DNA from: Flavobacteriia bacterium
GTDB lineage: Bacteria > Bacteroidota > Bacteroidia > Flavobacteriales > Weeksellaceae
Reading direction: 5' to 3'
Length of the DNA: 64,000 bases
Assembly: GCA_015999765.1 (NCBI GenBank)
Contig: JAECQR010000010.1
Span: forward strand, 3,048-67,047
Under the pieces are notes generated by a model that ran no database searches, was not told the DNA's origin, and worked only from the letters and a program-made list of their open reading frames with translations. A program made the translations under genes and the position numbers. Positions 16,093-51,016 of the stretch are shown here, in pieces (position 1 is the stretch's first letter; every line of letters starts with the position of its first letter).

Positions 16093-16578
16093 CTAGAAGG
16101 CTTTCAATAGCTCACCGATAATTTTCTGGGTATATAACTTCTGATTTTCAGACAGGGTTTTTTCCGCTTCGCCCTTTATTCTTTTTGAAACGATAATTTT
16201 ACCTTTTTTGCTTACCGCAATATAGGCGTAACAGTTTGTTATCCCTTTTTCGGGCACAGGTTGTGCGTACCCTGTAATCGCAATACCTGCTTCAGCATTA
16301 AACTTTCCTGCCGCCGACAACGACATTTGTTCCGCAATCTCTTTTGAAACCGAATCACACGCCTCTGCCATAATAGGGTTGACGTCAAGATGCATGGCTT
16401 TCTGCCCTGCATTATACACCGTGATGCCGCCCTGAAAAAAAGACATTGCATCCGGAGCCTGAGATAAGGTAAGTTGAATCATTCCGGAAGTGCAGCTTTC
16501 AGCAACAGCCACCGTTATGTGGTTTTTTATGAATAATTGGGAAACCAAGGCAAGGTTTTTGTTATCAATAGTTTGCAT
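16093..16578 (-). CDS. cinA: CinA C-terminal (NMN deamidase PncC-like) protein
   Basis: VAVAESCTSG, FQGGITVYNA, VSKEIAEQM, GIAITGYA. Confidence 0.85.
   Translation of the reverse strand: MQTIDNKNLALVSQLFIKNHITVAVAESCTSGMIQLTLSQAPDAMSFFQGGITVYNAGQKAMHLDVNPIMAEACDSVSKEIAEQMSLSAAGKFNAEAGIAITGYAQPVPEKGITNCYAYIAVSKKGKIIVSKRIKGEAEKTLSENQKLYTQKIIGELLKAF
16548..16561 (+). promoter_or_regulatory. Sigma-54-like -24/-12 motif for the FAD/Rieske operon
   Basis: AGGCAAGGTTTTTG, about 120 nt upstream of ATG 16683, lying inside the 5' end of cinA. Confidence 0.45.
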
Positions 16579-16667
16579 TTTTCTGTTTATTTTTAAAATA
16601 TCCTTTTTATTTTACGGTTATTAATACATTATATATAATAAGTGAACATTTCATCTTATCCGGGAAA

Positions 16668-16681
16668 CAAAAATAATTCCA
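16668..16681 (-). promoter_or_regulatory. Sigma-54-like motif for cinA
   Basis: Minus strand TGGAATTATTTTTG, about 90 nt upstream of ATG 16578. Confidence 0.4.
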
Positions 16682-16682
16682 A

Positions 16683-18194
16683 ATGAAAAGAGACGGCACA
16701 AACAAAAGCATCTGGCAAAACGATTCATCATTCCTGCAGAATACCACAGAAATGCCGGACACGGTCGATACAATAATTGTGGGTGCGGGGCTCACCGGTA
16801 TAAGTCTGGCATATGAACTTCAGAAGCGCGGGCAGCGGTGTCTGGTTATCGAACAGCACGATATCGGGTCCGGAACGACCGGAGGTACCACTGCGCATAT
16901 CAATAATTTTTTTGATGTATCTTATGATCAGCTGATCAGCCGTTTTGGTTTGGATGCCGCCACCGTGGTAGGTGAAAATGCCGGAAAGGTAGCTGACAGG
17001 ATAGCTGAAAACATTCAGGAATGCGGAATTTCCTGCGATTTCGACCGCTGCAGTTTCTATCTTATAAGTACGGAAGAAAAGCATGATAAGCAGCTCTCAG
17101 ATATTTTTTCCGCTCATCAGGAATTGGGAATTCCCGGACGGCAGGTGACGGAGATTCCCTTTACAGTGCCTTTCCGTGAAGCGATTGAAATTGAAGGACA
17201 GGCACAGTTTCATCCTCTCAGATATATTACCGCTCTTGCCCATGAATTCGAGGTGAGAGGTGGAGCAATATTGCTCAACACTCGGATCAGCAGTCATCAA
17301 TCCAGCGCTGACAGCGTAGAGGTTTTTACCGAATTCGGAAGAAAATTCACTGCTAAGAATTTGGTTTGGGCCACTCATATTCCTCCCGGAATCACCCGCT
17401 TCAGCACGATGAATGCACCGTACCGCAGCTATGCCCTTGCAGCGAAACTTGATAGTCCGCCACCGAAGCTCGCGCAGGGAGCAGATTTATACGATCCCTA
17501 TCATTATTTCCGCTATCATGAGATTGACGGTCTATGGCATCTGATCATTGGTGGGTTCGACCATAAAACAGGACATGAACAGGATACGGAGAGACCTTTT
17601 GGAGCATTGAAGGCTTACGCGCAGGATCACTTTGTTTTTACTGAAATCGTTGAACAGTGGTCTGCGCAGTATTATGTGCCCGTGGACGGTTTGCCGTACA
17701 TCGGTAGAATGCCTGGTGAAGATCATGTCTTTATCGCAACAGGATATAACGGTAACGGAATGACCTGGGGAACCCTGGCGGCGGATATTATTGCAGATCT
17801 GATAGACGGTCTGGAAAACGGACTTGCGGAAACCGTATCTCCCTCCCGTTTGGAATTCACTGCCAGTGCACGGGAGTTTGTGAAGGAAAATGTTGATGTC
17901 GTATTTCATCTGATCAAAGACCGTTTTGCAGCTGATAAAAAGGCTGAGCTCGATTCGCTTGAAAACGGGGAAGGAAAAGTAATTGTCTTTGAAGGAAAAA
18001 ATGTGGCCGCGTACCGCGATGAGCAGGGTGCGGTAAAACTTCTTTCTGCTGCATGCCCTCACATGGGTTGCACAGTGAATTTCAATACCTCCGAAAAAAC
18101 CTGGGACTGTCCTTGCCACGGTTCGAGATTCGATACAGACGGTAATCTTCTTACAGCACCGGCTACCGAGAATCTTAAACCGATTAACCTCTAA
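16683..18194 (+). CDS. FAD-dependent oxidoreductase with C-terminal Rieske 2Fe-2S domain (YhfW-like)
   Basis: IVGAGLTG, GSGTTGGTTAH, ATGYNGNGMTWG; Rieske CPHMGC...WDCPCHGSRF. Confidence 0.92.
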   Translation: MKRDGTNKSIWQNDSSFLQNTTEMPDTVDTIIVGAGLTGISLAYELQKRGQRCLVIEQHDIGSGTTGGTTAHINNFFDVSYDQLISRFGLDAATVVGENAGKVADRIAENIQECGISCDFDRCSFYLISTEEKHDKQLSDIFSAHQELGIPGRQVTEIPFTVPFREAIEIEGQAQFHPLRYITALAHEFEVRGGAILLNTRISSHQSSADSVEVFTEFGRKFTAKNLVWATHIPPGITRFSTMNAPYRSYALAAKLDSPPPKLAQGADLYDPYHYFRYHEIDGLWHLIIGGFDHKTGHEQDTERPFGALKAYAQDHFVFTEIVEQWSAQYYVPVDGLPYIGRMPGEDHVFIATGYNGNGMTWGTLAADIIADLIDGLENGLAETVSPSRLEFTASAREFVKENVDVVFHLIKDRFAADKKAELDSLENGEGKVIVFEGKNVAAYRDEQGAVKLLSAACPHMGCTVNFNTSEKTWDCPCHGSRFDTDGNLLTAPATENLKPINL

Positions 18195-18437
18195 ATGAAG
18201 TACATAATGGAAGCATCAAATCCTGTAACTCCCCGCGGAACTGCCGTGACGATCCCGGGTGAGACCACAAGAATCCAGCATAACCTGGGAACCACAGATA
18301 TTATAGTCGCCCTGTATAATGTCGCTACCGGAAACGAGCTCAACAGTGGCATTACCATTATCGATAAAGATTCGGTGATGATTACTACCGCCAGCGGTGC
18401 ACCTGAACAAATAAGGGTGGTAATCGTTGGTCTCTGA
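18195..18437 (+). CDS. Small hypothetical beta-rich protein with HNLGT motif
   Basis: 80-aa ORF abutting the upstream stop; IQHNLGTTDIIVALY. Confidence 0.6.
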   Translation: MKYIMEASNPVTPRGTAVTIPGETTRIQHNLGTTDIIVALYNVATGNELNSGITIIDKDSVMITTASGAPEQIRVVIVGL

Positions 18438-18483
18438 TTTCCTGTTTAATGAAGCACATCATCTGAATTTTAAAATAATCAAA

Positions 18484-19494
18484 ATGGATAAAACATTTGA
18501 CATACATTCCCTGAACGGGAAAACGGTCGTAATTACCGGAGCCAGCAGTGGAATAGGGCGTGCGGCAGCAGAGGCCTTTGCCATCGAAGGATGTTCCGTC
18601 GTGTTGGCTGCACGCGGTGAGCCTGCGCTGGAAGAGATCCTCGAGTTGTGCCGCGGTTTGGGTGCCAGTGCAGTAGCAGTACCTACTGACGTATCGGATC
18701 CCGTGCAGGTAAAGCATCTTGCAGAGCAGGCCCTGCAGTTCAACGGCCGTATCGATATCTGGATCAACAATGCCGGAGTTATGGCTACCGGTAAATTAGA
18801 AGAAATGCCGGTGGAAGTAGTGGAACAGGTGGTGAAGACCAATCTGCTGGGCTATCTTTTTGCTGCCCATACTGTTCTTCCGATTTTTAAAAAACAGGAA
18901 GAAGGAGTGCTTATCAATAACATATCCATTGGCGGTTGGATGCCCGCGCCTTACGGCGCAGCATACTCTGCCTCGAAATATGGTGCAAGGGGAATGGTAG
19001 AAGCACTTCAGGGCGAGGTGTCAGATTTTCCCAATATCCACGTCTGTGCACTTTATCCCGGCATTCAGCGTTCAACAGGCAATATGCATTCGGCAAAATA
19101 CTCAGGTTTTTCCTCTAAAATACCTCCGCTTTCCTTCGATCCGCGCGAACTCGCCGCAAAGATGGTGAAGACGGCGAAGCATCCGAAAAAAACGAATTAT
19201 ACCGACTGGACTTCCTTCTTGTTGAAAAATCTTTACGGGGTTTTTCCGAAAGTAATGGTTAACAGTATGTCCGCGGGAATGAGGCTGATGATGAAGAATT
19301 CTGATCCATCTGAAACCAACGGAAACGTATTGGTTCCCTCTGGTGAACCGCACCGGATTTATGGGGAAACCATGATTCCGCCGCCTTCTCCCACCACTAA
19401 AAAACTGATGTTTGCAGCATCTTTGGCAGCAGCAGCAGTAATGCTCTTCAGGCATTCGAAAGAACCCAACACTAAACCTAAACATTTAAAATAA
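18484..19494 (+). CDS. SDR family oxidoreductase
   Basis: VVITGASSGIG, WINNAG, YSASK; start moved to ATG 18484. Confidence 0.92.
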   Translation: MDKTFDIHSLNGKTVVITGASSGIGRAAAEAFAIEGCSVVLAARGEPALEEILELCRGLGASAVAVPTDVSDPVQVKHLAEQALQFNGRIDIWINNAGVMATGKLEEMPVEVVEQVVKTNLLGYLFAAHTVLPIFKKQEEGVLINNISIGGWMPAPYGAAYSASKYGARGMVEALQGEVSDFPNIHVCALYPGIQRSTGNMHSAKYSGFSSKIPPLSFDPRELAAKMVKTAKHPKKTNYTDWTSFLLKNLYGVFPKVMVNSMSAGMRLMMKNSDPSETNGNVLVPSGEPHRIYGETMIPPPSPTTKKLMFAASLAAAAVMLFRHSKEPNTKPKHLK

Positions 19495-19499
19495 AAAAT

Positions 19500-20666
19500 A
19501 TGAAAGCAGCCGTATTTCACAGTCCCGGGAAAATAACCTGCGACGAAACAGAAGACCCGAAAATAGAAGCTCAGGATGATGTAATTCTGAAAGTAACTTC
19601 CACTGCCATCTGCGGTAGTGATCTCCACATGTATTCCGGTGGTATTCCCCAGGCCCGTCCTATGGTGATGGGACATGAATTTATGGGGATCGTAGAAGAG
19701 ACAGGAAGTAATGTCCACGGTTTGAAAGTAGGTGACCGTGTTGTGGTACCTTTCCCAATCGCCTGTGGGGGGTGTTTTTTCTGCGACCACGATCTTCCGG
19801 GTCACTGTGAAAACAGCAATCCGGATATGTATGGACCCGAAGGCGGAATCCTGACTGAAAAGGGTGGAGGCATGTTTGGCTACAGCGATCTGTACGGAGG
19901 TTACAACGGCGGGCAGGCCCAGTATGTCCGTGTCCCTTTCGCCAATACAGGACCACGAAAAGTGCCGGACCATCTTACCGATTCTCAGGTTCTCTTTCTC
20001 ACTGATATTTTCCCTACGGGCTATACCGGAGTAATGTGGGGCGAACTGAAAGGAGGGGAGACCGTTGCTGTTTTCGGTGCCGGACCTGTAGGAGTGATGG
20101 CAGCAAAAAGTGCGGTACTTCACAATGCTTCAAAAATAATTGTAATCGATACGCTGCAGTACCGTCTTGACCGGGTTAGAGCCCAGACCGGCTGCGAAAC
20201 CGTGCTGTGGAAAAATGCCAAGGACACCATAGAGGAAATCCGCCATCTGACTCAGGGTCGCGGTGCGGATCTCTGTATTGATGCAGTAGGTTTTGAGCCG
20301 GAGCGCAATATTGTAGACCGGGTAAAAGCCACGGTAAATTTCGAGAAGGGAAGCATAAAGGTATTGGATGCCTGCTTCAGTGCTGCAAGAAGGGGAGGAA
20401 GAATTTCCATCCTCGGGGTTTATCCGGTAAATTATGACAACTTCCGTTTGGGGCAGATTTTTGATAAAGGGCTCACTGTAAAAGCTGGGCAGGCTCCGGT
20501 TCATGCTGTTATCGATAAACTTTTGGGTTACGTTGCAGAAGGAAAAGTAGTCCTTGATGATCTGATTACTCACAGGATGTCGCTTACCGATGTCGCTAAA
20601 GGGTATGAGATCTTCGATAAAAAAGAGGACGGTTGCGTCAAAGTGGTGCTTGACCCATGGAAATAA
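19500..20666 (+). CDS. Zinc-dependent alcohol dehydrogenase (glutathione-independent formaldehyde dehydrogenase-like)
   Basis: AICGSDLH, MGHEFMG, CGGCFFC...GHC, VFGAGPVG. Confidence 0.92.
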   Translation: MKAAVFHSPGKITCDETEDPKIEAQDDVILKVTSTAICGSDLHMYSGGIPQARPMVMGHEFMGIVEETGSNVHGLKVGDRVVVPFPIACGGCFFCDHDLPGHCENSNPDMYGPEGGILTEKGGGMFGYSDLYGGYNGGQAQYVRVPFANTGPRKVPDHLTDSQVLFLTDIFPTGYTGVMWGELKGGETVAVFGAGPVGVMAAKSAVLHNASKIIVIDTLQYRLDRVRAQTGCETVLWKNAKDTIEEIRHLTQGRGADLCIDAVGFEPERNIVDRVKATVNFEKGSIKVLDACFSAARRGGRISILGVYPVNYDNFRLGQIFDKGLTVKAGQAPVHAVIDKLLGYVAEGKVVLDDLITHRMSLTDVAKGYEIFDKKEDGCVKVVLDPWK

Positions 20667-21597: not shown

Positions 21598-22179
21598 AAG
21601 CACGATGATGGCGAATATCGACAGAAATTCGCTTTGCCAGTTTTGGAATGATTCAAACCAAAGCCGCGAGTCTGTAAGTTACTCGCCGACCTGCTGTATT
21701 GGTTTCGCTTCGAGTCTGTTCTGAGTATTGGCGTCCTGAAGACTTCCGTAAACATGAAGTACAAAAGACGCAGCAGCCAGCAGAAAAAGCGAGATGGTAA
21801 GCGAGTTTTTGTACAGTTTGAGCCATATACCGCCTTTTCTGAGCGGCCAGGGCGCTCCTTTACGTTCGGCAGAGGGCGTGCAGTCTACTTCATTGGGTTT
21901 TTCAATGTCCTTAGATCGGAAGAACCTTTCTGCCGCATAAAAAATCGTAAACCACACCAATAAACCCATCTGTAAAAACTCGCTTTCCCAGTTTTCGAAA
22001 GTGGCTTCAATGAAATGTCCGGAATGTAAGTATTGGTAAAAATTTACGGTTTCTCCGCCCCATTCCTGAAGGTCTTTATTATATTCCAGCAGTCCGAAAT
22101 AAATCTGTCCGCCTAAGCCCAGTAAAAACAAAAGCAGAAATACAGCAGAAAGACTGTTGTTATAAAGCCATTTTTTCAT
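21592..22179 (-). pseudogene. DUF6766 family membrane protein, nonsense-interrupted and 3'-truncated
   Basis: FENWESEFLQ motif; in-frame TAA at 21681-21679, after which LTDSRLWFESFQNWQSEFLSIFAIIVLSI continues to 21592, where it meets the kinase remnant. Confidence 0.75.
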
Positions 22180-22219: not shown

Positions 22220-22693
22220 TCATTTTTGAAGTTCCAGCGTGTTTTGCCGCTGTACTTTCACTTTAGAACTTTCGTTCCGGTATACTTCTTTGCGCAGATT
22301 GGTGCTCGAAAAACGGTGATGCCGTTCATTGAAATAAAGAACGATATTCTGTTCTTCACAGAATTTTCGGCCTGTAAAGTTTTTGTCCCTGTATTCCACG
22401 CCTATAATTCTTACATCAACGGAATACAGTTTCAAAATGTCTTCCAGATCCTGCTCTGTTGCGTAGGGAATAATTTCATCCACATATTTGCAGGCTTTAA
22501 GCTGAATATATCTTTCAACCACGGTTTGCACAGGTTTGTTTTTTTCCGGCCTGTCAATTGTGGGATCCGTCTGTAAACCTACAATAAGGTGATCGCACTG
22601 CGCTTTTGCTTCCGCAAGCATGCGGATATGTCCTGCATGCAGCAGATCAAAACAACTGAAGGTAATTCCGGTAATTTTTTTATTGGTATCCAT
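22220..22693 (-). CDS. Glycerol-3-phosphate cytidylyltransferase-like (TagD family)
   Basis: FSCFDLLHAGH (HxGH), LIVGLQTDP, YVDEIIPY, RHHRFSST. Confidence 0.88.
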   Translation of the reverse strand: MDTNKKITGITFSCFDLLHAGHIRMLAEAKAQCDHLIVGLQTDPTIDRPEKNKPVQTVVERYIQLKACKYVDEIIPYATEQDLEDILKLYSVDVRIIGVEYRDKNFTGRKFCEEQNIVLYFNERHHRFSSTNLRKEVYRNESSKVKVQRQNTLELQK

Positions 22694-22702: not shown

Positions 22703-23827
22703 TTAAATGTTTAATTCCTCTATTTCCTCAATGAATTCAGAGTGTTTATAAATTGAAAGAACGTATGCAGGATCGGGTATCCGGTTTTTTTCTTCGTCGA
22801 GATCAAAAATTCCGCACCGGCTGTAAACGCAGAGGTTGTCCCAATCGGGCCTGTCCGTAACAGGATAGATGCAGATGCCGTGAAAATCGACTCCTTCATG
22901 TGCCGCGATAATGCATTCTGCAGCAACTTCATCCAGCCATTCAGCACGGCTGTCTTCGAAATGCCCGGTTTCGGAAAGAAACATGGGTTTTTTATACCGC
23001 TGATATGCGTTGAGCAAAAGCTGATGTAAAGGTATTCTCTCGTTAGCATGATCCGGCCAGCAAAGGCTTTCGGCATCAGCTTTCCACTGGCAGTTCCAGT
23101 AATAATTGAACCCTAGAATCTCAAGATAACTTTCGTCACCTCCGAGTTCCGGACATCTTCTTCCGGCAATAATATCCATGGCTTCGAACTGGTATTCGTT
23201 GCGGATAGAAATTTCATCGGAATCGGGACCGTGTACTTTAACCAGCGGTTCCACGAGTACGATTTTACACTCGGGATCTTCCTGTTTCATTGCACGGATT
23301 CCCTGAAGTGCTGCTTTGCAAAGGTGGTATTTGATATCCCAGCCGCTGTTCACCGCAAAAGGAACAGTGCCTCTGTCGTCGCCTGAAAGCCAGGACAGAA
23401 AACTGATCTCGTTGATCGGAACTACGTATAGTATTTCGCTGCTGTGTTTCCTGAAAAACCTTACAAAAGCCCGGCAGAGTTTCTCGAACCGGTCAGCAAA
23501 ATGCGGATGGGTAGGGAAGAGCCCGTCAGGATACCCGAAATGGATAAGGTCCCAAATCTGCTGAATGCCAGTTTCTCGGGCCGCACGGATTCGGTTAAGC
23601 ACCTCGGAAAAATCATATTCTCCTTCTGTTTTCTCCACTTCGCTCCAGCATATTCCTTCGCGGACGGTATAGATGTCGAGCGAAGTCAGCAGTCTGTAAT
23701 CTCCGTGTACACGGAGATCGTGCTGGGTTTCTTTCAGGAGGTTTACTCTTTGGCCATGGCGGTTGATGTGATCAGCACATTCAAAACCACCCATCAGATA
23801 ACTTTTAAAGAACGGTGAGCTTTTCAT
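22703..23827 (-). CDS. Glycoside hydrolase, GH1-like clan GH-A TIM barrel
   Basis: MGGFECAD, WDLIHFGYP, PINEISF (acid/base), FLSETG (nucleophile); start moved to MKSSPFF 23827. Confidence 0.75.
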   Translation of the reverse strand: MKSSPFFKSYLMGGFECADHINRHGQRVNLLKETQHDLRVHGDYRLLTSLDIYTVREGICWSEVEKTEGEYDFSEVLNRIRAARETGIQQIWDLIHFGYPDGLFPTHPHFADRFEKLCRAFVRFFRKHSSEILYVVPINEISFLSWLSGDDRGTVPFAVNSGWDIKYHLCKAALQGIRAMKQEDPECKIVLVEPLVKVHGPDSDEISIRNEYQFEAMDIIAGRRCPELGGDESYLEILGFNYYWNCQWKADAESLCWPDHANERIPLHQLLLNAYQRYKKPMFLSETGHFEDSRAEWLDEVAAECIIAAHEGVDFHGICIYPVTDRPDWDNLCVYSRCGIFDLDEEKNRIPDPAYVLSIYKHSEFIEEIEELNI

Positions 23828-24950
23828 GATCTTCGCATTTTTCGGTCTCCAGAGTGGCAAATAAATCCAGTGCGTTTTTAAAAGCCTGGTCCATATTGAA
23901 ATATTTGTAATTGGCGAGTCTGCCTACAAAATAAATATCCTTCAGCTGATCTGCATGCTTTTTATATTCTTTGTAGATGCGTTGGTTTTTCTCGTTTGGT
24001 ACAGGGTAATACGGTTCGCCTTCATCCACCGTATATTCTTTCACGATGCTTGTTTTGGGTGATTTCTGATTTCCGAAATGTTTGTATTCGACAATTCTGG
24101 TGAAATCCACATCCTGTCCGGGATAGTTAACCACAGAGTTTTCCTGGAAATATTCCTGATCCAGATGTTCGGTGACAAAATTAATGGAGCGGTATTCCAG
24201 TTTTTCCGGCATCCGGTCTTTAAACTCAAAGAAACGGTCAACCGGTCCTGTATAGAATAATTTCCCGAAATCTTCCAGCTGATCTTTGATATCGAAATAA
24301 TCGGTGTTCAGCAATACCGTGATATTGGGATGGTCGAGCATTTTCTCAAACATTTGGGTATATCCACCCTTTGGCAATGCCTGATATCGGTCTGAAAAAT
24401 AACGGTCGTCATGATTGTACCGCACAGGAATTCTCTCCAGAACTGAGGCGTGAAGCTCTTCAGGAAATTTATCCCACTGTTTTTTGGTGTAGTGCTTAAA
24501 CATTTTTTCGTACAGCACGGGACCTACTCGGTTAAGCACGGCTTCTTCACCGTTTTTGGCTCTTTCAAAAGGAATTCGGTTTTCAGCAAGCCAGGTCTGC
24601 ATTTCTTCTTCGGTTTCAAGGTTCTGGTCAAACAGAATATTTACGGTTCGGATATTCACCGGAATTGGGACGGTTTTGTCGTCAACGCGGGCGATAACCC
24701 GGTGTTCCCAGGGATACCATTCAGAGAAACGGTTCACGTATTTCCATACTTCTTCGTCATTGGTATGAAAAAGATGAGCGCCATATTTTGACACCAGAAT
24801 TCCGTTTTCGTCATATTCATCATAACAGTTACCGGCGATATGGTCTCTTTTTTCGATAACCAAAACTTTTTTTCCGGCAGAAGCGTAACGTTCAGCCAGT
24901 GTTGCGCCGGAAATTCCGGCACCTATAATGAGGATATCTATCTTTTTCAT
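23805..24950 (-). CDS. glf: UDP-galactopyranose mutase
   Basis: IIGAGISG, RDHIAGNCYD, KYGAHLFHT, TKKQW, EPYYPV, GRLANYKYFNMDQ. Confidence 0.96.
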   Translation of the reverse strand: MKKIDILIIGAGISGATLAERYASAGKKVLVIEKRDHIAGNCYDEYDENGILVSKYGAHLFHTNDEEVWKYVNRFSEWYPWEHRVIARVDDKTVPIPVNIRTVNILFDQNLETEEEMQTWLAENRIPFERAKNGEEAVLNRVGPVLYEKMFKHYTKKQWDKFPEELHASVLERIPVRYNHDDRYFSDRYQALPKGGYTQMFEKMLDHPNITVLLNTDYFDIKDQLEDFGKLFYTGPVDRFFEFKDRMPEKLEYRSINFVTEHLDQEYFQENSVVNYPGQDVDFTRIVEYKHFGNQKSPKTSIVKEYTVDEGEPYYPVPNEKNQRIYKEYKKHADQLKDIYFVGRLANYKYFNMDQAFKNALDLFATLETEKCEDHEKLTVL

Positions 24951-26032: not shown

Positions 26033-26105
26033 AATAGTATATTTTAATGTTGAGTAGTCGGAACCGATGTCCCTGTGAATGGTCTGTTCTCGCAAAAAAA
26101 TATAA

Positions 26106-26126
26106 TATCACTAGAGCGTAGTGATA
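26106..26126. promoter_or_regulatory. Perfect 8-bp inverted repeat in the GT leader
   Basis: TATCACTA-GAGCG-TAGTGATA. Confidence 0.4.
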
Positions 26127-26202
26127 AAAGATATTAGATGGTAAAACCGGAGAGGCATTTAAAAGTAAAAATCCTGCCGCTATCTAATTGCCGAATAATC
26201 AA

Positions 26203-26216
26203 CAAAAAAGGTGCCA
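26203..26216 (-). promoter_or_regulatory. Sigma-54-like -24/-12 promoter for the GT-glf operon
   Basis: Minus strand TGGCACCTTTTTTG (TGGCAC-N5-TTG). Confidence 0.6.
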
Positions 26217-28330: not shown

Positions 28331-28344
28331 CTAAAACTATACCG
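28331..28344 (-). promoter_or_regulatory. Degenerate sigma-54-like motif upstream of the disordered protein
   Basis: Minus strand CGGTATAGTTTTAG, 35 nt upstream of the ATG. Confidence 0.35.
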
Positions 28345-32432: not shown

Positions 32433-32611
32433 TACTTTGTTAAGGAGCTTTAAAATGATTCTGGTGATTGATATAAATAGCAATGAACTGGATCAGTAAT
32501 TTTGTTTCTGAGCCTCAGTAAATTGAGCGCTTCTGAAGATTCAGTATTCCTGATTAAACTTCAGTCCTGGTTAAAAATTATTATGTTAAACAATGTTAAA
32601 TCGCCGATAGA

Positions 32612-32625
32612 TGGCACCGTTATTG
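32612..32625 (+). promoter_or_regulatory. Sigma-54-like -24/-12 promoter
   Basis: TGGCACCGTTATTG, about 50 nt upstream of ATG 32678. Confidence 0.6.
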
Positions 32626-40656: not shown

Positions 40657-40675
40657 ACTCGTTAAATAAGTTTAA

Positions 40676-40884: not shown

Positions 40885-41322
40885 CTAAACTCTTTGAAAA
40901 TCAGGATTCCATCCCGTGATGGACTTTTTAATCGTATCACCGGAAAGATTTTTACTCAGCGTGCGCTGCAGTAATATTTTAAACTCATCATCGTGGGTAA
41001 AACGCAAAGCGGCAATCTGATCGAAACTTAACTTCTCCGCTACTTCATCGGATCTTTTTCCAAAAAGTTCAAAATACCTTTGTTTGAATTCAAGAATTAT
41101 AATTCTGTTTTGATTTCCGAGTGCATAGTGTTGCCTGAGCATGATTGCCAGAAATAACAGCAGGAAAATTACGAGGGAAAACAACTGCCAAACCAACGGG
41201 TTCTGCTCATCACTGAAGCTTTTCCATACTCCTAAAACCTGAAGCACCGCCAGAAGCGGTAAATAGACGAAGTGATGCGGCGGATAATATCGTTTATGAT
41301 TGGTGTAATTTTGACTTTCCAT
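40885..41322 (-). CDS. DUF6526 family membrane protein
   Basis: QNYTNHKRYYPPHHF, QNRIIILE, IAALRF, IKKSITGWNPD..RV. Confidence 0.8.
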   Translation of the reverse strand: MESQNYTNHKRYYPPHHFVYLPLLAVLQVLGVWKSFSDEQNPLVWQLFSLVIFLLLFLAIMLRQHYALGNQNRIIILEFKQRYFELFGKRSDEVAEKLSFDQIAALRFTHDDEFKILLQRTLSKNLSGDTIKKSITGWNPDFQRV

Positions 41323-41335: not shown

Positions 41336-41349
41336 CAAATATGTAACCA
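41336..41349 (-). promoter_or_regulatory. Sigma-54-like motif upstream of DUF6526
   Basis: Minus strand TGGTTACATATTTG. Confidence 0.4.
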
Positions 41350-41367: not shown

Positions 41368-43908
41368 TTATTCCGTTTCTAAAAGTGAAATTGCCTTCAG
41401 CATATCAAAACCTTTGCCCAGTACCGGTTTGAAGAGATCGCCTTTTTCCTCAATTCTTGCCAATGCGTTTTCAATGTTGAAATCAGTAGGTTTGAGGCCG
41501 ATTTTCAGTTCGTCCCATTCAATGGGCATGGAAACCGGTGCGCCGTTTTTAGGACGGAGGCTGTATACGCTGGCAAGGGTTTGTCCGCGGCGGTTCTGGA
41601 GGTAATCAAGATAAATTTTTCCTTTGTCCCGTTTCTGTAAGGTGCGTTCGAGCGTTGTGATATCCGGAAGTTCTTTCTGCACCATCTGCATCATGATATG
41701 GGCAAAATTTTTAACCTGTTCAAAAGAATACTGTGCGCCCGCCGGGATATAAATGTGGATTCCTGAACTGCCCGATGTTTTGCAGTATCCTTTCATTTTA
41801 GCTTTATCCATTACCTTTTTCACGGTTTGCGCGGTAAGAATTACGTCTTCAAATGTATTGTTGTCTGAAGGATCGAGATCCAGCACCAGGTAATCCGGTT
41901 TATCGGTTGTTTCTTTCCGGCTTGTCCAGACATTAAGCTCGATGCAGCCCAAATTATTAAGATAAGCAATCGTTGCCTTATCGTTGCAGAGGATGTAATT
42001 GATGTATTTATCGGTGGACTCCGAAAATACTTTCTGGGTTTCAATCCAGTCCGGGATTTCGTCTGAGGCGTCTTTCTGATAGAAGCTCATCCCATCTATT
42101 CCATTAGGAAATCGGTTCATCGACTGAGGCCTGTCTTTCAGGTGAGGCAGAATATATTTTGCAACGCTTTGGTAATAAGCAATCACGTCGCCTTTGGTAA
42201 CCTGATCTTTCGGGAAATAAATTTTATTCTGGTTGGTGAGTTTCACTTCCTGCTTTCCAAATTTCTGCAGCTGCTCATTTTCTCTTTTCATAACTGATTT
42301 TTTTAATGGTACTGGATCAGCGACATATTTTTCTTCATCTTTCTTGAAATTAAGATCTTTGGGATTAAGATCCTCTCTGAGCCTTAGAAAAACAGGATGT
42401 CGGAAGATATGGTCACTTGTAAGTTCCGTGAATTTAATTTCAGCAATAAGTTCAGGTTTGAGCCAGGTCGGTTTATCGTTGGTCTTCGGTGTTGTCGCAA
42501 AAGGTGGCTTATCTGTAATCAGCGGTTCCATTTTTTCGTAGAGCTCTACAAGGCCTTTATCACTGAAGCCGGTACCGGTATGTCCGCAAAAAATAAGTTC
42601 ATCACCATCATAACGGCCGAGAACTAGTGATCCAAATTTCTTGCGGCTGCCTTTGGGAGCGGTAAATCCACAGATAAGGACTTCTTCGGTCTTCTGGCTT
42701 TTAATTTTCAGCCAGTCGCCATTTCGGATGCCGCGGTGGTAAGTGCTGTCTATTTTCTTCGCGATCATGCCTTCCAGTTCCATTTTTTCTACCAGCCGGA
42801 AAAATTTTTCTCCGTTTTCCAGGACATGATCATGGTATTTGATGTATTCGGTTTCTACCAAAGCGTCTTTCAGAAGTTCCTTCCTTTGGATGAGACTAAG
42901 GTTTTCGGTGGAATGACCGTTGAGCCATAAGAGGTCAAAAACCTGATAAATCACGTTTAGGTTGGGATTATCGCCAATCCGCTGCAACCACTGGAAATTC
43001 GGCTTTCCCTGATCATCATACGCAACAAGTTCGCCGTCCAGAATCATTTCGTGTTCCTGAAACTTTAGTGAATTACTCACTTTCTTAAACTTTTCGACAT
43101 ACGACAGCCCGTTTCTGGAATACAGCTGAATATCTTTCCTGAGGTCTGCTACAGCCCGGTAGCCATCCCATTTTATTTCAAAAGCCCAGGCGGGTGAGGT
43201 GAAAGGTTTATCAGTTGTACCCGCGAGCATCGGATTGATGAACCTGGTAAGTTTTTTCTCGCCGCTCAGTGCTGGAGTATAGTTTCGGTAAGCTTTTACA
43301 ACCTCAGGCTTTTTCTCAACTTTTTTTACTTTTTTTTTTGAATTTAAGTAAGCGGTTACTTTCGAATCTTCGGTGGTGTTTTCTTCAGCGTCATAATGGT
43401 CTGTCGCAAATTTATCCCTGTGTTTAATCAGGAGCCAGGGCTCTCCGCTGTCAGAATTTTTAATTTTTACCAGTGCAAATTCGCCTTTCAGTTTTTTACC
43501 GTGAAGGATGAATTTCAGAGAACCTTTATGCAATTCTGCCTGCATAAGCAGATCATCGGTTTTACCTTTCACTTTTTCCAGAGGTTCGTAGGTTCCTTCG
43601 TCCCAGATTTCTACTTCGCCGGCGCCGTAATTTCCCTCAGGTATGCTTCCTTCAAAACTGCGGTAAGCAAAAGGATGGTCTTCAACCATCATCGCCAGGC
43701 GTTTGTCCTCCGGATTTAAGGAAGGTCCTTTCGGGACAGCCCAACTTTTCAGCACGCCATCCATCTCGAGGCGGAAATCATAATGTAACCTGCTGGCGGC
43801 ATGACGCTGAATCACAAATTTCAGTTTTCCTTTGCTGCTCTGGGATTTTCCTTTGGGTTCTGCCGTCTGTTTGAAATCCCGTTTTTCGTTGTATTTCTCT
43901 AATGGCAT
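41368..43908 (-). CDS. ligD: NHEJ DNA ligase D (phosphoesterase-ligase-polymerase)
   Basis: FVIQRHAASRLHYDFRLE (PE); FEIKWDGYR, EGMIAK, WLKIK (ligase); LDLDPS, KTSGSSGIHI, DYLQN (polymerase). Confidence 0.96.
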   Translation of the reverse strand: MPLEKYNEKRDFKQTAEPKGKSQSSKGKLKFVIQRHAASRLHYDFRLEMDGVLKSWAVPKGPSLNPEDKRLAMMVEDHPFAYRSFEGSIPEGNYGAGEVEIWDEGTYEPLEKVKGKTDDLLMQAELHKGSLKFILHGKKLKGEFALVKIKNSDSGEPWLLIKHRDKFATDHYDAEENTTEDSKVTAYLNSKKKVKKVEKKPEVVKAYRNYTPALSGEKKLTRFINPMLAGTTDKPFTSPAWAFEIKWDGYRAVADLRKDIQLYSRNGLSYVEKFKKVSNSLKFQEHEMILDGELVAYDDQGKPNFQWLQRIGDNPNLNVIYQVFDLLWLNGHSTENLSLIQRKELLKDALVETEYIKYHDHVLENGEKFFRLVEKMELEGMIAKKIDSTYHRGIRNGDWLKIKSQKTEEVLICGFTAPKGSRKKFGSLVLGRYDGDELIFCGHTGTGFSDKGLVELYEKMEPLITDKPPFATTPKTNDKPTWLKPELIAEIKFTELTSDHIFRHPVFLRLREDLNPKDLNFKKDEEKYVADPVPLKKSVMKRENEQLQKFGKQEVKLTNQNKIYFPKDQVTKGDVIAYYQSVAKYILPHLKDRPQSMNRFPNGIDGMSFYQKDASDEIPDWIETQKVFSESTDKYINYILCNDKATIAYLNNLGCIELNVWTSRKETTDKPDYLVLDLDPSDNNTFEDVILTAQTVKKVMDKAKMKGYCKTSGSSGIHIYIPAGAQYSFEQVKNFAHIMMQMVQKELPDITTLERTLQKRDKGKIYLDYLQNRRGQTLASVYSLRPKNGAPVSMPIEWDELKIGLKPTDFNIENALARIEEKGDLFKPVLGKGFDMLKAISLLETE
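43330..43339 (-). repeat. A10 homopolymer in the ligD PE-ligase linker
   Basis: Coding strand TCA AAA AAA AAA GTA AAA AAA GTT GAG. Confidence 0.9.
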
Positions 43909-43935
43909 GTTCTGAAAGTTTTATTACGTTATTAT

Positions 43936-44715
43936 TTAGCCGGCCTTGGCTTTTCCGGCTTCCAGACTTGCTTTCAACTGTGCCATTAGGTCGGTTGCTT
44001 TTGCGGAAACCTCCTCTTTGGTCTCGGTTTTTTTCACTTTTCCTTTTGATTTAGCTTTGATGATGGCCATTAAATCATCATTATAAGTGTTTTTATATTT
44101 CGCAGGATCAAATTTTGTCGCGCGCTGTTTGATGAGTGATTCCGCCATTTCCAGTTCGTCAGCTTTGGGATTTTTAGCGCTAGGAATTTTCAGGTCTTCA
44201 AAACTTCTGAGTTCTTCCGGATAGCGCATCCTGTTAACCATGAGGATTTTGTCTTCGTAAGGCCGCACAAGACAAAGAATTTCTTTTTCTCGGAGGATGA
44301 AAGTTCCTATACCTGCCATTTTAGTTTTTAAAAGTGCTTTCAACAGCAGTTTATATGCTTCTTCACCGTTCTTTTGTGGTTCCAGAAAGTAGGAGGACTC
44401 AAAATAAGCACTGTCAATTTCGTGAACGTCTACAAACTGTTTAATGTTCAGGATTTTCGATTTTTCGGGATTTACTTCGTCGAAATCTTCTTTTGTGAGG
44501 ACCACGTAGCTGTCTTCGAGTTTATAACCTTTTACAATATTTTCCCATTTTACTTCCTTTCCGGTTGTCGCATTTACTCTCTTAAAATTAATATTGGAAA
44601 GATCGTCCTTGTCCAGCATGTCGAGATCGAGGTTGCTTTCCCCGGTCGCGGAATAAAGTTTGATGGGAATATTAACGAGCCCGAATCCGATGGCTCCGTT
44701 CCAGATTGCTCTCAT
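43936..44715 (-). CDS. ku: NHEJ Ku protein
   Basis: MRAIWNGAIGFGLVNIPIKLY, IVKGY, YFLEP, DLMAQLKASL; start moved to 44715. Confidence 0.96.
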   Translation of the reverse strand: MRAIWNGAIGFGLVNIPIKLYSATGESNLDLDMLDKDDLSNINFKRVNATTGKEVKWENIVKGYKLEDSYVVLTKEDFDEVNPEKSKILNIKQFVDVHEIDSAYFESSYFLEPQKNGEEAYKLLLKALLKTKMAGIGTFILREKEILCLVRPYEDKILMVNRMRYPEELRSFEDLKIPSAKNPKADELEMAESLIKQRATKFDPAKYKNTYNDDLMAIIKAKSKGKVKKTETKEEVSAKATDLMAQLKASLEAGKAKAG

Positions 44716-44741
44716 AAAAGTTGGTTTTGATTTTAGACCAT

Positions 44742-44755
44742 CAAAAATGCGTCCA
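44742..44755 (-). promoter_or_regulatory. Sigma-54-like motif upstream of ku
   Basis: Minus strand TGGACGCATTTTTG, 27 nt upstream of the ATG. Confidence 0.45.
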
Positions 44756-44795
44756 ATCAAACGCGGAGTTTTTAACTTTGATATCATTAGAACCT

Positions 44796-45617: not shown

Positions 45618-47168
45618 TTAGTCCAGACCTCCTTTTCTTGTTGGTTCCTTTACTTCAGGCCATTTCATCTGTTCACCGGTTCTTTCGTTAACAGGAAGTT
45701 TAATTCTTTCTGCAGAAGTTTTTTCCGGATCTTCGCTGGCCATATAAGTCATAATAGCGATTAAAGCAACATTGCTTTTTACATCATCAAAAACGATTTT
45801 GTCATAAGTATCACGATTGGTATGCCAGGTGTAATTTCCGTAGCTCCAGTTCAAAGAGCCTAACATGAAGGCTGGAACACCTGCCGCAACAAATGATGCA
45901 TGGTCGGATCCGCCACCGCCAGGAGTCCCGGGGAACGTAGTTTTGATGTCTTTCGTAAGTTCCTTTGGTACGGCAGCAAGCCATCTTCCCAAATAATCAT
46001 ATGAATTCAGGAATCCCTGTCCGCTGATGTTTGCGATACGTCCCGTTCCGTTGTCCTGGTTGAACAGCGCCTGTATTTTTGGCATCTGGTCTTTATGTGC
46101 AGAAACGTAACCGCGTGATCCGTTCAGTCCCTGTTCTTCGCTTCCCCAAAGGCCTACGATGATGGTTCTTTTGGGATTAGGATATAATTTTTTCAGGATT
46201 CTTGCAACTTCCATCATGGTAATGGTTCCAGTTCCGTTATCGGTTGCACCGGTGCCGCCATCCCAGGAATCGAGGTGTGCTGATAGTATAATATATTCAT
46301 CAGGTTTTTCTGAACCTTTGATTTCGGCCACGGTATTGAAGGTTGGTGCCATTCCTTTGTCTTTGGAATTGGCTGTGATTTTCAGTTTTGGTGTAGTTCC
46401 GTTTTTCAGCATTCTGTAAAGCTGTCCGTAATCTTCAAGAGAAACATCCATTACCGGAATTTTTTTAGTTCCTGCCGAAAATATTTTGTTAACACCGAAG
46501 CCTCGGGACCAGTTTGAAGAAATGATTCCGGCTGCACCGGCTGCTTCAAGCTTTGCATTCAACGTACGTGAAGATTCTCCTGAAGCTTTAATTGAATTCT
46601 GCCATACTTCAGATGCGGCCTTAGACTCAGCCTGCATTTTTTCGAAAGATTCTGGCGTAGCAAATTCCTTCCAATTGTATTCCGGTCGTCCGGAGGCCTG
46701 ATATTGGGAAACCATAACCAGTTTTCCCTTTACTGATGAAAGAAATTTGGTGAAATCTTCTTTGCTGTTGAAGGTCGGAAGCATCACCACATCTGCAGTT
46801 AAACCTTTAGCCGGAGTTGCCGGGCTGAATGCGAGCTGCATCCCTTCAAGGGATTTCGCATAAGGATATACCATTTCGAGAGAAGAAGTTCCTCTTTCCC
46901 ACGATTTCCATTCGCCCCACTGTTCGTTGCGGGCATCGATTCCCCAACTTTTGAATTGGTTTACCGCCCAGTCGTGAGACTGCTGCATTTTTGGACTTCC
47001 CACCAGTCTTGGACCGATTCCATCGAGCAATTCGTAGGCGAGCTTTTCAAGTTGGGAATTGTTGTAAGTTTCATCCATGATGGATTTTGTCATTTGGTCC
47101 TGCGTTTGGGCATTGAGTCCCGCTGCAAACACCGTCGAAAGCATTAAAGCTTTAGCATAGTTCTTCAT
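45618..47168 (-). CDS. M28 family metallopeptidase (M20/M25/M40 superfamily)
   Basis: IGPRLVGS, SAHLDSWD, GATDNGTG, WGSEEQGL, SDHASF, WHTNRDT; start moved to MKNYAK 47168. Confidence 0.92.
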   Translation of the reverse strand: MKNYAKALMLSTVFAAGLNAQTQDQMTKSIMDETYNNSQLEKLAYELLDGIGPRLVGSPKMQQSHDWAVNQFKSWGIDARNEQWGEWKSWERGTSSLEMVYPYAKSLEGMQLAFSPATPAKGLTADVVMLPTFNSKEDFTKFLSSVKGKLVMVSQYQASGRPEYNWKEFATPESFEKMQAESKAASEVWQNSIKASGESSRTLNAKLEAAGAAGIISSNWSRGFGVNKIFSAGTKKIPVMDVSLEDYGQLYRMLKNGTTPKLKITANSKDKGMAPTFNTVAEIKGSEKPDEYIILSAHLDSWDGGTGATDNGTGTITMMEVARILKKLYPNPKRTIIVGLWGSEEQGLNGSRGYVSAHKDQMPKIQALFNQDNGTGRIANISGQGFLNSYDYLGRWLAAVPKELTKDIKTTFPGTPGGGGSDHASFVAAGVPAFMLGSLNWSYGNYTWHTNRDTYDKIVFDDVKSNVALIAIMTYMASEDPEKTSAERIKLPVNERTGEQMKWPEVKEPTRKGGLD

Positions 47169-47307
47169 TCTATATAACTTTTGGTGCTGAAGATAATATT
47201 TTTTGCGAAGAGAGAAAAATTTAACTGCTGATTGGGTTTCAGATTTCGTAAAAATTTTCATCAATAGAAAAATAATAATCAACAAAACTGGCTGATAATA
47301 CGTAAGT

Positions 47308-47321
47308 TGGCAAAAAACTTG
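47308..47321 (+). promoter_or_regulatory. Sigma-54-like motif upstream of DUF2147 and the 4-TM gene
   Basis: TGGCAAAAAACTTG. Confidence 0.45.
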
Positions 47322-47325
47322 TATA

Positions 47326-47802
47326 GTGAAAGCCATGCTTATAAAAAATCTCGTTTTAATCCTCTATTTTTGTTTTTTGAATTTAAATGCCCAGTCAAAG
47401 GCAGATCACGTGCTTGGCAAATGGCTCGCAACCGATCACAGTGTCGCCGTAGAGGTGTACAAGCTGAAAGGCGAGTATAAGGCCAAAGTGATTTGGTTCG
47501 ACGAGAGCAAAGGCAGCGGAAAACCGATGCATACCCGTACCGATTTCGAAAATCCTGATCCCAATCTCCGGAACAGAAAAATATTGGGAATGGAGGTTTT
47601 AGATGGTTTAGTTTACAATGCAAAAACCAAGGAATGGGAGCACGGCAAAATCTATGATGCGAGTTCGGGCAGGTTATGGGATTCCTCTGCACATATCACG
47701 GAAAACGGACTTCTGAAAGTACGTGGTTACTGGAAATTTAAATGGATTGGCAAAAGCATGACTTTTAAGAAAACTAATTACTCAACCTTAACTAAACTAT
47801 AA
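47326..47802 (+). CDS. DUF2147 domain protein
   Basis: LGKW, WEHGKIYDASSG, LKVRGY; start could be ATG 47335. Confidence 0.88.
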   Translation: MKAMLIKNLVLILYFCFLNLNAQSKADHVLGKWLATDHSVAVEVYKLKGEYKAKVIWFDESKGSGKPMHTRTDFENPDPNLRNRKILGMEVLDGLVYNAKTKEWEHGKIYDASSGRLWDSSAHITENGLLKVRGYWKFKWIGKSMTFKKTNYSTLTKL

Positions 47803-47813: not shown

Positions 47814-48158
47814 ATGAATTTAATCATCCGACTTCTCGTTACCGCAGTGGTGGCATTTTTTCTCACCAAGATTCTTTCAGGCGTACATTTCGATGGGTTT
47901 TCCACGGCAATTGTGTTTGCAATCGTTCTGGGCATTCTAAACCTGATTGTTTCGCCCATTCTGAAAATCCTCGGTCTACCTCTTACCATTATTACTTTGG
48001 GACTTTTCTCGCTGGTCATCAATGCTCTGGTTATTCTGATTGCAGATTATTTTATTGACGGGATGACGATTGACGGGTTCTGGTGGGCATTTATTTTCAG
48101 CATTGCATTGTCACTTATTACTTCACTGTTGAACGGGATTTTTACTTCTTCGGAATAG
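47814..48158 (+). CDS. 4-TM phage-holin-family (YvlD-like) membrane protein
   Basis: LNLIVSPILKILGLPLTIITLGLFSLVINA. Confidence 0.88.
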   Translation: MNLIIRLLVTAVVAFFLTKILSGVHFDGFSTAIVFAIVLGILNLIVSPILKILGLPLTIITLGLFSLVINALVILIADYFIDGMTIDGFWWAFIFSIALSLITSLLNGIFTSSE

Positions 48159-50327: not shown

Positions 50328-50344
50328 AACAAAGAATCTAATAC

Positions 50345-50376
50345 AAAAAGCTTCTGATTATTTTCAGAAGCTTTTT
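50345..50376. terminator. Bidirectional terminator
   Basis: AAAAAGCTTCTGA-N6-TCAGAAGCTTTTT. Confidence 0.75.
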
Positions 50377-50397
50377 CTATTCTTGACCGTGTCAATT

Positions 50398-50946
50398 TTA
50401 TAACTGAACTTTTACTTTAAAACCCGTATTCATTTTCATTGTAATTTGGTCCGCAGTAGCGGCGTTCGCCTGAATTTCAAAGATTAAGGAATTCTGGCTT
50501 GTTTTAAAATAGTTGATCAGTTCCTCATCGGGCACCGTAAATGTAACTGTAGTAGGATTGGTATTATTCACCACTGTAGCGATTAGTTTTTCCGGCTGGT
50601 TGGGAGCTTTAATATAAACTCTTGCATTTTTAATAACATCAAGTTTTGTATCGACCGTTGAGCTGATAAAATCCATACTCAGGGTACTCATCTTTACCGA
50701 TTTCAGATTATTGATAGAATAATTTGGATTATTTTCTTTGATCTTCGCATCCAGATTTATATTCATTGGGATTTCTGGAGTTCTGGTGTATGTCGTGGTA
50801 CTTACGTTCACGAAAGGAACGGTTACTGTGGTAGTAAACGGAACATCAAAAGGAGGCAGCGCGTCTAAAACCGTATTCACAATATCTCTGCAGCTGGTTG
50901 TGATAAGCAGGATCAGCATTCCCATTAATAATGATAACTTTTTCAT
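50398..50946 (-). CDS. Hypothetical lipoprotein
   Basis: MKKLSLLMGMLILLITTSC lipobox; start moved to 50946. Confidence 0.8.
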   Translation of the reverse strand: MKKLSLLMGMLILLITTSCRDIVNTVLDALPPFDVPFTTTVTVPFVNVSTTTYTRTPEIPMNINLDAKIKENNPNYSINNLKSVKMSTLSMDFISSTVDTKLDVIKNARVYIKAPNQPEKLIATVVNNTNPTTVTFTVPDEELINYFKTSQNSLIFEIQANAATADQITMKMNTGFKVKVQL

Positions 50947-51016
50947 AACTGATTTTTTTAATATTTTTAATGATTGCATTAATCATTCCAATTTTTTAAA
51001 GTAAAACTTCCTGAAA

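Follow-up and report, generated by a model that had tools for sequence, protein, structure and literature searches.

A conserved candidate sigma-54-type promoter element upstream of ku-ligD and several stress-type genes in a Weeksellaceae genome

Which regulator commands the general stress response of Bacteroidota? We know of none, and to our knowledge the phylum has no counterpart of RpoS, SigB or EcfG/PhyR; its members have an unusual primary sigma factor and many extracytoplasmic-function (ECF) sigma factors. The question is raised by a 64,000-nt stretch of DNA from a Weeksellaceae genome (Flavobacteriia bacterium, contig JAECQR010000010.1, positions 3,048 to 67,047; hereafter the window), in which a short motif, GG-N8-TTG, lies upstream of ku-ligD and several other stress-type genes with the spacing of the -24/-12 promoters of sigma-54 (RpoN). 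Ku/LigD, DUF892 (YciE/YciF type), YflT-like proteins, YdaD-like SDR, CinA and DJ-1/PfpI, among others, belong to sigma-B, sigma-S or EcfG regulons, and genes for non-homologous end joining (NHEJ) are under RpoE2 in Sinorhizobium. A first-pass annotation of the window had proposed that the motif marks a general stress regulon of sigma-54 type, and the ten motif strings that it quoted all lie at the positions and on the strands given for them. Here we weigh that proposal against comparisons with other genomes.

The extended motif is enriched and conserved upstream of genes

Counted as a bare pattern, GG-N8-TTG shows no excess in the window, which has 114 copies where shuffled sequence gives 145 +/- 12; we therefore tested the motif as a matrix and by its conservation. 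A first position weight matrix (PWM1) was built from 44 distinct non-window ku sites, drawn from 80 ku loci of other genomes, and scanned over both strands of the window (128 kb of strand). Its four best matches, at 26200-26217(-), 32611-32628(+), 16665-16682(-) and 44739-44756(-), are all intergenic and each faces a gene. With ku left out, the 7 kb of oriented upstream DNA contain three matches of at least 14 bits, where 0.09 are expected from 1000 dinucleotide shuffles. Across 116 Weeksellaceae loci, oriented upstream DNA has 5.2 matches of at least 12 bits per 10 kb, 12-fold more than the 0.4 of coding and other sequence, and still about 2.0 per 10 kb (roughly 5-fold) without ku and the YflT-like gene, although many of these matches are orthologous repeats that are phylogenetically non-independent, so that the counts overstate the number of events.

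A second matrix (PWM2) was derived from every site outside the window; with it, seven of the sites listed in the first-pass annotation are within the top eight of the window. The remaining top-eight hit, TCGGCTTCTTTATTGCAT at 54290-54307(-), scores 15 bits and lies antisense within the coding region 53388-54422; it is probably a false positive that arose by chance. The individual sites are as follows.

44742..44755, minus strand: sigma-54-type element TGGACGCATTTTTG, before ku-ligD; predicted start around 44729, leaving 11 nt to the ku ATG
41336..41349, minus strand: sigma-54-type element TGGTTACATATTTG, internal, in the 45-nt gap between ligD and DUF6526; TTG-to-ATG distance 13 nt
32612..32625, plus strand: sigma-54-type element TGGCACCGTTATTG, before the YflT-like gene; predicted start near 32638, giving a 40-nt leader
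47308..47321, plus strand: sigma-54-type element TGGCAAAAAACTTG, before DUF2147 and the four-transmembrane (4-TM) PF04020 gene; TTG-to-ATG distance 13 nt
26203..26216, minus strand: sigma-54-type element TGGCACCTTTTTTG, 170 nt upstream of the glycosyltransferase (GT) operon; top score with both matrices
16668..16681, minus strand: sigma-54-type element TGGAATTATTTTTG, facing cinA/pncC; abuts the DAO ATG and contains TATTTTTG
16548..16561, plus strand: sigma-54-type element AGGCAAGGTTTTTG, facing the DAO-Rieske operon; inside cinA codons 6-10; PWM2 score 13.0
28331..28344, minus strand: weak candidate CGGTATAGTTTTAG, before the genes for the disordered protein and DUF892; -12 element TAG; 9.2 bits with PWM2

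At ku, GG-N8-TTG lies 20-55 nt upstream of the gene in the 80 loci of other genomes, surrounded by wholly diverged sequence, and among distinct Weeksellaceae ku upstream regions it is kept in 66 of 78, again with diverged flanks; the site reads TTGGACGCATTTTTGATG in Kaistella, ATGGAATATTTATTGCA in Epilithonimonas and CGGCAYRTTAATTGCT or CGGCACAATCATTGTA in Chryseobacterium. The YflT-like site, second in the PWM1 scan, takes the form tGGCAY-N5-ATTGaa in 24 of 29 distinct Weeksellaceae orthologous regions at constant distance from the gene. All 16 distinct orthologous regions of DUF6526 have TTGGT-N7-TTTG(A/C)T, with a distance to the ATG that varies by at most 1-2 nt, and TGGCA-N6-CTTG(T/C)AT precedes DUF2147 in 5/5 orthologs, again at the same distance. 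The site of the GT-glf operon is present in seven of eight Weeksellaceae GT operons (as CTGGCACTTTAATTGCTG in locus L216), its distance and sequence varying between genomes, and was found in no Flavobacterium, Cytophagia or other order among the GT loci compared; these comprised the matches listed, three of them Weeksellaceae and most from other phyla, with individually chosen homologues added, a scan with the single GT protein having returned the same species only.

Two further sites are supported by one informative locus, L087, in which the cinA/DAO region holds two islands of identity that coincide with them. The cinA site is identical there at 17 of 18 positions in an intergenic region that has otherwise diverged (the proteins are 61-66% identical), and a distant cinA homologue in L028 bears a site of its own, TTGGCAGAAGAATTGTTT. 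The DAO-Rieske site forms a 15/15-nt identity island amid cinA sequence that is about 55% identical, L087 being its single informative ortholog. Both are less firmly supported than the others, because TATTTTTG in the cinA copy makes up a sigma-A box and the DAO copy is contained in cinA codons. If both promoters were active they would converge, and their transcripts would overlap by about 80 nt (16574-16655).

The first-pass annotation's list of nine did not hold throughout. For the weak candidate at 28344(-), the same species gives the only close comparison; genes for distant homologues of the disordered protein have sites of the GGCAY or GGTAT kind, their -12 element being TTG or TTT. The ninth site, 50977..50990(-) (TGGAATGATTAATG), was rejected, as it reads GG-N8-ATG, overlaps a start codon and recurs in none of eight orthologous upstream regions. 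The copy at 26630(+), already described as pointing the wrong way, is the complementary strand of a stretch 39-52 nt ahead of a lipoprotein open reading frame (ORF) of 76 aa and was taken to be there by chance. Sites before the SDR, TopIB and 88-aa genes were also discarded, since what matched in close relatives belongs to a short ORF upstream and has no counterpart in the window, as was GGCAACATATATTGTTGCC upstream of DJ-1, which is the terminator of the DUF892 gene and has N9 spacing. The comparisons support the view that this is a genuine, conserved, sigma-54-type -24/-12 element before ku-ligD and several stress-type genes.

Features that suggest sigma-54 recognition

Rigid spacing is a hallmark of -24/-12 promoters, in which GG-N10-GC (that is, GG-N8-TTG) spans one helical turn without tolerance. 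In the ku, YflT-like and DUF6526 upstream regions the motif has N8 in 66/78, 24/29 and 16/16 cases, respectively, and N7 or N9 in 0-2. The consensus TGGCAC-N5-TTGCW is followed unevenly: it is fully matched in Chryseobacterium ku sites, which read GGCAYRTTAATTGCT, the canonical TGGCAC-N5-TTGC form, and in the L216 GT-glf site. Across families, T stands before GG in 73% of sites, C, A or T follows it in 48, 23 and 27%, and the next base is A in 75%; C at -12 occurs in only about 27% and in none of the window sites, in keeping with the relaxed -12 element that had been postulated from the window. The TAnnTTTG box that the first-pass annotation had assigned to housekeeping genes is indeed found on nine of them, including queA, xth and an FKBP gene, and does not accompany the stress-gene sites except at cinA.

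The same motif also precedes a gene of a mapped sigma-54 regulon: in Kaistella treverensis, TTGGCTAAATCTTTGCGA lies 43 nt upstream of grpE, and grpE-dnaJ is a mapped sigma-54 (SM4) target in Flavobacterium psychrophilum (PMC9723704). At two unrelated genes of the window, DUF6526 and DUF2147, and at their orthologs, the distance from TTG to ATG is exactly 13 nt; with the G at -13, the predicted start falls at the ATG or 1 nt before it, so that these mRNAs would be leaderless. Leaderless mRNAs exist in flavobacteria, where they make up 5.5% of the mRNAs of F. psychrophilum (PMC9723704). Such a fixed geometry is not needed by an operator and would fit a determinant of the start site. Taken as sequence evidence, the predicted membership of these sites in the sigma-54 class is well supported.

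Variants at -24 were also seen. The element WWGCACATTATTTGTAA, with AG or TG at -24, is conserved before SDR orthologs in 11 Epilithonimonas-type genomes (L021-L040, L059), and TTAGAACATGTTTTGCAG at 5585-5602 of L099, before clpB, likewise has a -24 element other than GG. We had considered this clpB as a second reference sigma-54 target and dropped it, as it has only TAGAACATGTTTTGCAG, with AG in place of GG. Classical sigma-54 recognition leaves these variants unexplained. Outside Bacteroidota, two metagenome-assembled genomes (L131, Gemmatimonadaceae, and L132, gammaproteobacterial) have cGGCATGGACSGTGCATA, a canonical sigma-54 promoter, upstream of a YflT-like homologue; the flanks of the two are related, so that they count as a single event.

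Activators are encoded in the lineage

As the first-pass annotation had noted, the window encodes no enhancer-binding protein, and no activator gene was found in the ku loci either; activators do exist in the lineage. Over all compared loci they are confined to L096, L220-222, L240, L244 and three non-Bacteroidota loci. A gene for a 394-aa activator lies 7 kb from the YflT-like gene in Chryseobacterium lacus (L096). Its product has a REC domain, a Sigma54_activat domain with a GSFTGA loop and an AAA_lid, and has no HTH or HTH_8 domain; in Chryseobacterium, Kaistella, Planobacterium and Cruoricaptor its orthologs share 87-100% identity and have the same length of 394 aa throughout. The gene carries its own GG-N8-TTGCTGCA site 53 nt upstream, kept in four genomes, suggesting that the activator is probably autoregulated. 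In two of the four genomes it lies about 3 kb from a block of catalase, DJ-1, 200-aa and DUF72 genes, in which DJ-1 carries GTGGCAATATTCTTGTTG; in the window, a catalase / DJ-1 / 200-aa / DUF72 block adjoins DUF892. The families with sites in related genomes include DUF892, DUF2383, DUF937, MscS, DJ-1 and lipocalin.

An RpoN-box search of the window and 3.8 Mb of compared loci returned no rpoN. We presume from its lineage that this genome has the gene, as conserved proteins with a sigma-54-interaction domain occur in Kaistella and Chryseobacterium and as F. psychrophilum has a mapped sigma-54 regulon.

DUF892 genes and an activator module in Chitinophagaceae

A metagenome scan with the window DUF892 as query gave 74 usable homologues, 32 of which have TGG[CT]A[CT] on the sense strand in the 150 nt before the gene, where shuffled sequence gives 7.5; the motif is carried by DUF892 genes elsewhere in Weeksellaceae and on many low-GC soil contigs. 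On two DUF892 contigs an NtrC-like activator gene lies immediately upstream. One locus, L244, has in order a receiver gene, a REC-AAA+-HTH_8 activator gene, a 14-nt inverted repeat, aGGCACagagtTTGt, a gene for a disordered protein (MATRNRS...) and DUF892, the last two being the same gene pair as 27474-28295 and 26720-27409 of the window.

This REC-AAA+-HTH_8 activator family, which has a GAFTGA loop, is that of Chitinophagaceae. In three further Chitinophagaceae genomes, a module of CHASE3-kinase, receiver and activator genes is flanked by genes for TopIB, DUF2383, a pyridoxamine-oxidase-like protein and small ORFs, and in front of these flanking genes lies TGGCAY-N5-TTT(G/C) or TTGGTATCACATTTGAC, which the genomes have in common. 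Promoters of sigma-54 type thus go with these stress families in a second class of Bacteroidota as well, where they are physically linked to an activator.

Further elements near the sites

Upstream of two of the sites lie repeats that are candidate binding sites for regulators.

32584..32599, plus strand: direct repeat TGTTAAACAATGTTAA, 12 nt upstream of the YflT-like -24 element; candidate regulator site
28471-28478 and 28497-28504, strand not applicable: AACGATCGT palindrome in two copies 26 bp apart, 125-160 nt 5' of 28344(-); candidate enhancer

About 15 orthologous promoters keep the TGTTAAACAATGTTAA repeat, which has no second match in the window even when up to three mismatches are allowed; as a shared enhancer, this TGTTAA repeat was rejected, being unique to the promoter of the gene at 32678. 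The two ACGATCGT palindromes are the only copies in the 64-kb window, against 0.55 expected, and in L244 the 14-nt inverted repeat, with TGATCA cores, occupies the equivalent position. Upstream of Chryseobacterium ku (L043-L080), an inverted repeat, TTGTCAtttGACAA (TTGTCA-N3-TGACAA), and a TACCACA element are kept 20-60 nt ahead of the ku site; these may be genus-specific regulator sites.

The 170-nt leader of the GT operon, 26033-26202(-), contains a hairpin with a U-run (ATCACTAcgctcTAGTGAT and TATATTTTTTT, about 26124-26094; fold z = -2.5 relative to shuffles), for which a search of Rfam gave no match. The L216 GT leader has a similar terminator-like element, and the hairpin may be an attenuator or a small RNA. 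Between the disordered-protein gene and DUF892, a strong terminator-like hairpin at 27464-27438 lies about 25 nt before the DUF892 ATG.

A proposed mechanism and its alternatives

We consider it probable, reading from sequence, that the sites are sigma-54 promoters heading at least seven units, likely fired by the 394-aa activator. RNA polymerase with sigma-54 would bind GG at -24 and TTG(C/A/T) at -12 as a closed complex, which would fire only on ATP hydrolysis by an AAA+ activator, a phosphorylated response regulator that would remodel the complex. The seven units would be ku-ligD, DUF6526-SDR-TopIB, the YflT-like gene, DUF2147/4-TM, GT-glf, cinA and, probably, DAO-Rieske. In Weeksellaceae the activator may be the probably autoregulated 394-aa protein, which has no DNA-binding domain and would act from solution, a mode suited to promoters squeezed into gaps of 45 to 75 nt; the TGTTAAACAATGTTAA repeat and the ACGATCGT palindromes would be extra elements, candidate sites for further regulators. 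The window's Ku, LigD, YflT-like protein, YdaD-like SDR, CinA, DUF6526 and DUF2147 overlap known general stress regulons, and it is only from this gene content that the label "general stress response" is drawn. We suggest more tentatively that Bacteroidota have a phylum-wide general stress, desiccation or dormancy programme run through sigma-54, which would cover NHEJ, TopIB, DUF892/DUF2383, and hydrophilin-like disordered and small membrane proteins, with some leaderless mRNAs and with dedicated activators (a CHASE3-kinase/REC/NtrC-like module in Chitinophagaceae, an autoregulated protein lacking a DNA-binding domain in Weeksellaceae). Bacteroidota may, in other words, use sigma-54 rather than a sigma-S- or sigma-B-like factor for their general protective programme.

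Several observations weigh against sigma-54 as the reader of the motif, besides the non-independence of the family-wide counts. The -12 C of the classical GC doublet is absent in all window sites, which have TTGT or TTGA; the cinA site also contains a TAnnTTTG box, possibly a sigma-A -7 box; AG or TG replaces the -24 GG in some orthologous promoters (Epilithonimonas SDR, L099 clpB), which sigma-54 should not tolerate; DUF892 at 59551, for which the first-pass annotation had already reported no motif, has only GG-N8-TTT, and DJ-1 in the window is without a good site, though both would belong in a regulon of this kind; and neither rpoN nor an activator turned up in the window or across 40 kb read from the same species. 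The poorly conserved -12 C, the -24 variants and the full TATTTTTG of the cinA copy would also suit an operator, or a variant box of a sigma-A/sigma-70-family factor, with a merely coincidental likeness to -24/-12 promoters, as would the 3' half TTTTG, which is similar to the end (TTTG) of the TAnnTTTG -7 box of Bacteroidota. We regard this as quite unlikely, however, as the motif is asymmetric, with GG invariant at exactly N8 from TTG; its Chryseobacterium and Epilithonimonas versions (AATTGC, TATTGC) lack TAnnTTTG, and there is no -33 TTG at proper spacing. The distance to two start codons is fixed at 13 nt, the motif recurs on grpE and on the activator's own gene, and sigma-54 activators are encoded beside the target families. 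It is highly improbable that the copies arose by chance, as a short pattern would in AT-rich intergenic DNA: the bare pattern is indeed unenriched, a 15-bit match lies antisense at 54290-54307, and 50990(-) and 26630(+) look random, but seven sites are conserved across genomes with diverged flanks, and this conservation already contradicts chance for the main sites, as do the shuffle tests and the bias in orientation and location.

If the sites are sigma-54 promoters, they need not form one stress or dormancy regulon. They could instead belong to separate circuits, for instance for envelope or glycan genes, DNA repair and small stress proteins, with activators and signals of their own and no single response, which we hold to be possible, if rather unlikely. 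In F. psychrophilum there are three activators, and the sigma-54 promoters fall into at least two co-expression groups (PMC9723704); in Chitinophagaceae a DNA-binding NtrC-like activator is encoded beside the genes. The upstream elements also differ, with TGTTAA found only at 32584, ACGATCGT only at 28471/28497 and TTGTCA-N3-TGACAA at Chryseobacterium ku; taken as a test of one master regulator, these differences argue neither way. Against separate circuits, the compact promoters of DUF6526 and DUF2147, in 45- to 75-nt gaps, leave scant room for enhancers, the most conserved activator seen in the family is autoregulated and without a DNA-binding domain, and the gene families recur together across two classes.

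Relation to known systems

In gene content, including catalase neighbours and small hydrophilic proteins, the proposed regulon overlaps those of sigma-B (Bacillus), sigma-S (Escherichia coli) and EcfG/RpoE2 (Alphaproteobacteria). Those are sigma-70-family factors controlled by anti-sigma factors, partner switching or proteolysis, whereas here the factor would be of the sigma-54 class, with an ATP-dependent activator and a tight off/on switch. Activators of sigma-54 without a DNA-binding domain have precedents in FlgR (Helicobacter/Campylobacter) and CtcC (Chlamydia), which act on flagellar or developmental genes. The Weeksellaceae 394-aa protein, with its REC domain, sigma-54 interaction domain and AAA lid and its lack of HTH_8, could by analogy act free of an enhancer, and its tie to the window promoters is a proposal.

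Within the phylum and class, the SM4 regulon of F. psychrophilum, mapped by 5'-end RNA-seq, includes groESL, dnaK, grpE-dnaJ, htpG, lon, clpB and skp (PMC9723704). It resembles the present case in having a -24/-12 motif apart from the TAnnTTTG sigma-A box, stress genes and several activators; it differs in that its targets concern protein quality control, envelope and gliding, and do not include ku, ligD, DUF892, DUF2383, the YflT-like gene, cinA, TopIB or GT-glf (PMC9723704). Set beside SM4, the window motif has TTG(A/T/C) at -12 across the family, and two of its promoters are placed for predicted leaderless mRNAs. A survey of sigma-54 regulons across phyla, based on -24/-12 sites predicted with a position-specific scoring matrix, found chaperones and proteases enriched in Flavobacteriia and names neither Ku nor LigD nor DUF892-type orthologous groups (PMC12316311). 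Control of Flavobacteriia chaperone and envelope genes by sigma-54 is therefore known (PMC9723704, PMC12316311); what is new is the content of the regulon and its possible physiological role. Our literature search found no paper linking sigma-54 to Ku/LigD, DUF892/DUF2383, TopIB or the other families here in Bacteroidota.

If the proposal is true, it offers a concrete candidate for the missing stress regulator of Bacteroidota and extends the known Flavobacteriia sigma-54 regulon past chaperone and envelope genes. Promoters of sigma-54 have very low basal activity, which would explain how ku-ligD is kept silent until needed. It would also give a physiological context to DUF892, DUF2383, DUF6526, DUF2147, DUF937, the disordered protein and the GT-glf operon.

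Genes of the window

The window has a G+C content of 38-46%; its Ku shares 99% identity with the Ku of Chryseobacterium sp. HSC-36S06, with Kaistella species as the next relatives. Pfam and NCBIfam agree with the gene calls of the first-pass annotation, and an Rfam search returned tRNA-Leu as its sole match. The genes concerned are as follows.

43936-44718, minus strand: ku (Pfam Ku, 2.9e-48); true start MRAIWNG at 44718, a longer ORF being set aside
41368-43908, minus strand: ligD (Pfam LigD_Prim-Pol, 3.4e-89; LigD_N; DNA_ligase_A_M/C)
40885-41322, minus strand: DUF6526 (Pfam/NCBIfam), 45 nt after ligD
40676-40840, minus strand: 54-aa lipoprotein/TM ORF in the DUF6526 cluster
39799-40656, minus strand: YdaD-like SDR (Pfam/NCBIfam)
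38680-39783, minus strand: topoisomerase IB, TopIB (Pfam/NCBIfam)
38385-38651, minus strand: 88-aa ORF, last gene of the DUF6526 cluster
32678-33217, plus strand: YflT-like small stress protein, 179 aa (Pfam YflT, E=1e-4, 23.2 bits, under the 26.2-bit cut-off)
27474-28295, minus strand: disordered protein, Gly/Ser/Arg- and Asp/Glu-rich (89% G/S/R/N/Q/D/E/Y)
26720-27409, minus strand: DUF892, first copy (Pfam/NCBIfam)
59018-59551, strand not stated: DUF892, second copy (Pfam/NCBIfam)
24947-26032, minus strand: GT1-family glycosyltransferase, GT (Pfam)
23805-24950, minus strand: UDP-galactopyranose mutase, glf (Pfam)
22703-23827, minus strand: 374-aa protein without assigned family, third gene of the GT-glf operon
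22220-22693, minus strand: cytidylyltransferase-like protein, fourth gene of the GT-glf operon
16093-16578, minus strand: cinA/pncC, PncC-type CinA (Pfam/NCBIfam)
16683-18194, plus strand: DAO-Rieske protein (Pfam/NCBIfam); its operon spans 16683-20666
47335-47802, plus strand: DUF2147 (Pfam)
47814-48158, plus strand: 4-TM PF04020 protein (Pfam), directly 3' of DUF2147

With a gap of 27 nt between them, ku and ligD (41368-44718, minus strand) are likely an operon. The cluster from DUF6526 to the 88-aa ORF (38385-41322), 3' of the 41349(-) element, has all its genes on the minus strand with gaps of 15-44 nt. A search of NCBIfam with the 179-aa YflT-like protein gave no match. The same four-gene GT-glf operon, with the GLF domain in the second gene, occurs in L216-L219, and DUF6766 (21679-22179, minus strand) is possibly an extra 3' member of it in the window. 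The longest ORF of an M28 peptidase (45618-47336, minus strand) runs across the DUF2147 promoter; translation probably begins 25 codons further in, at the Met at about 47261.

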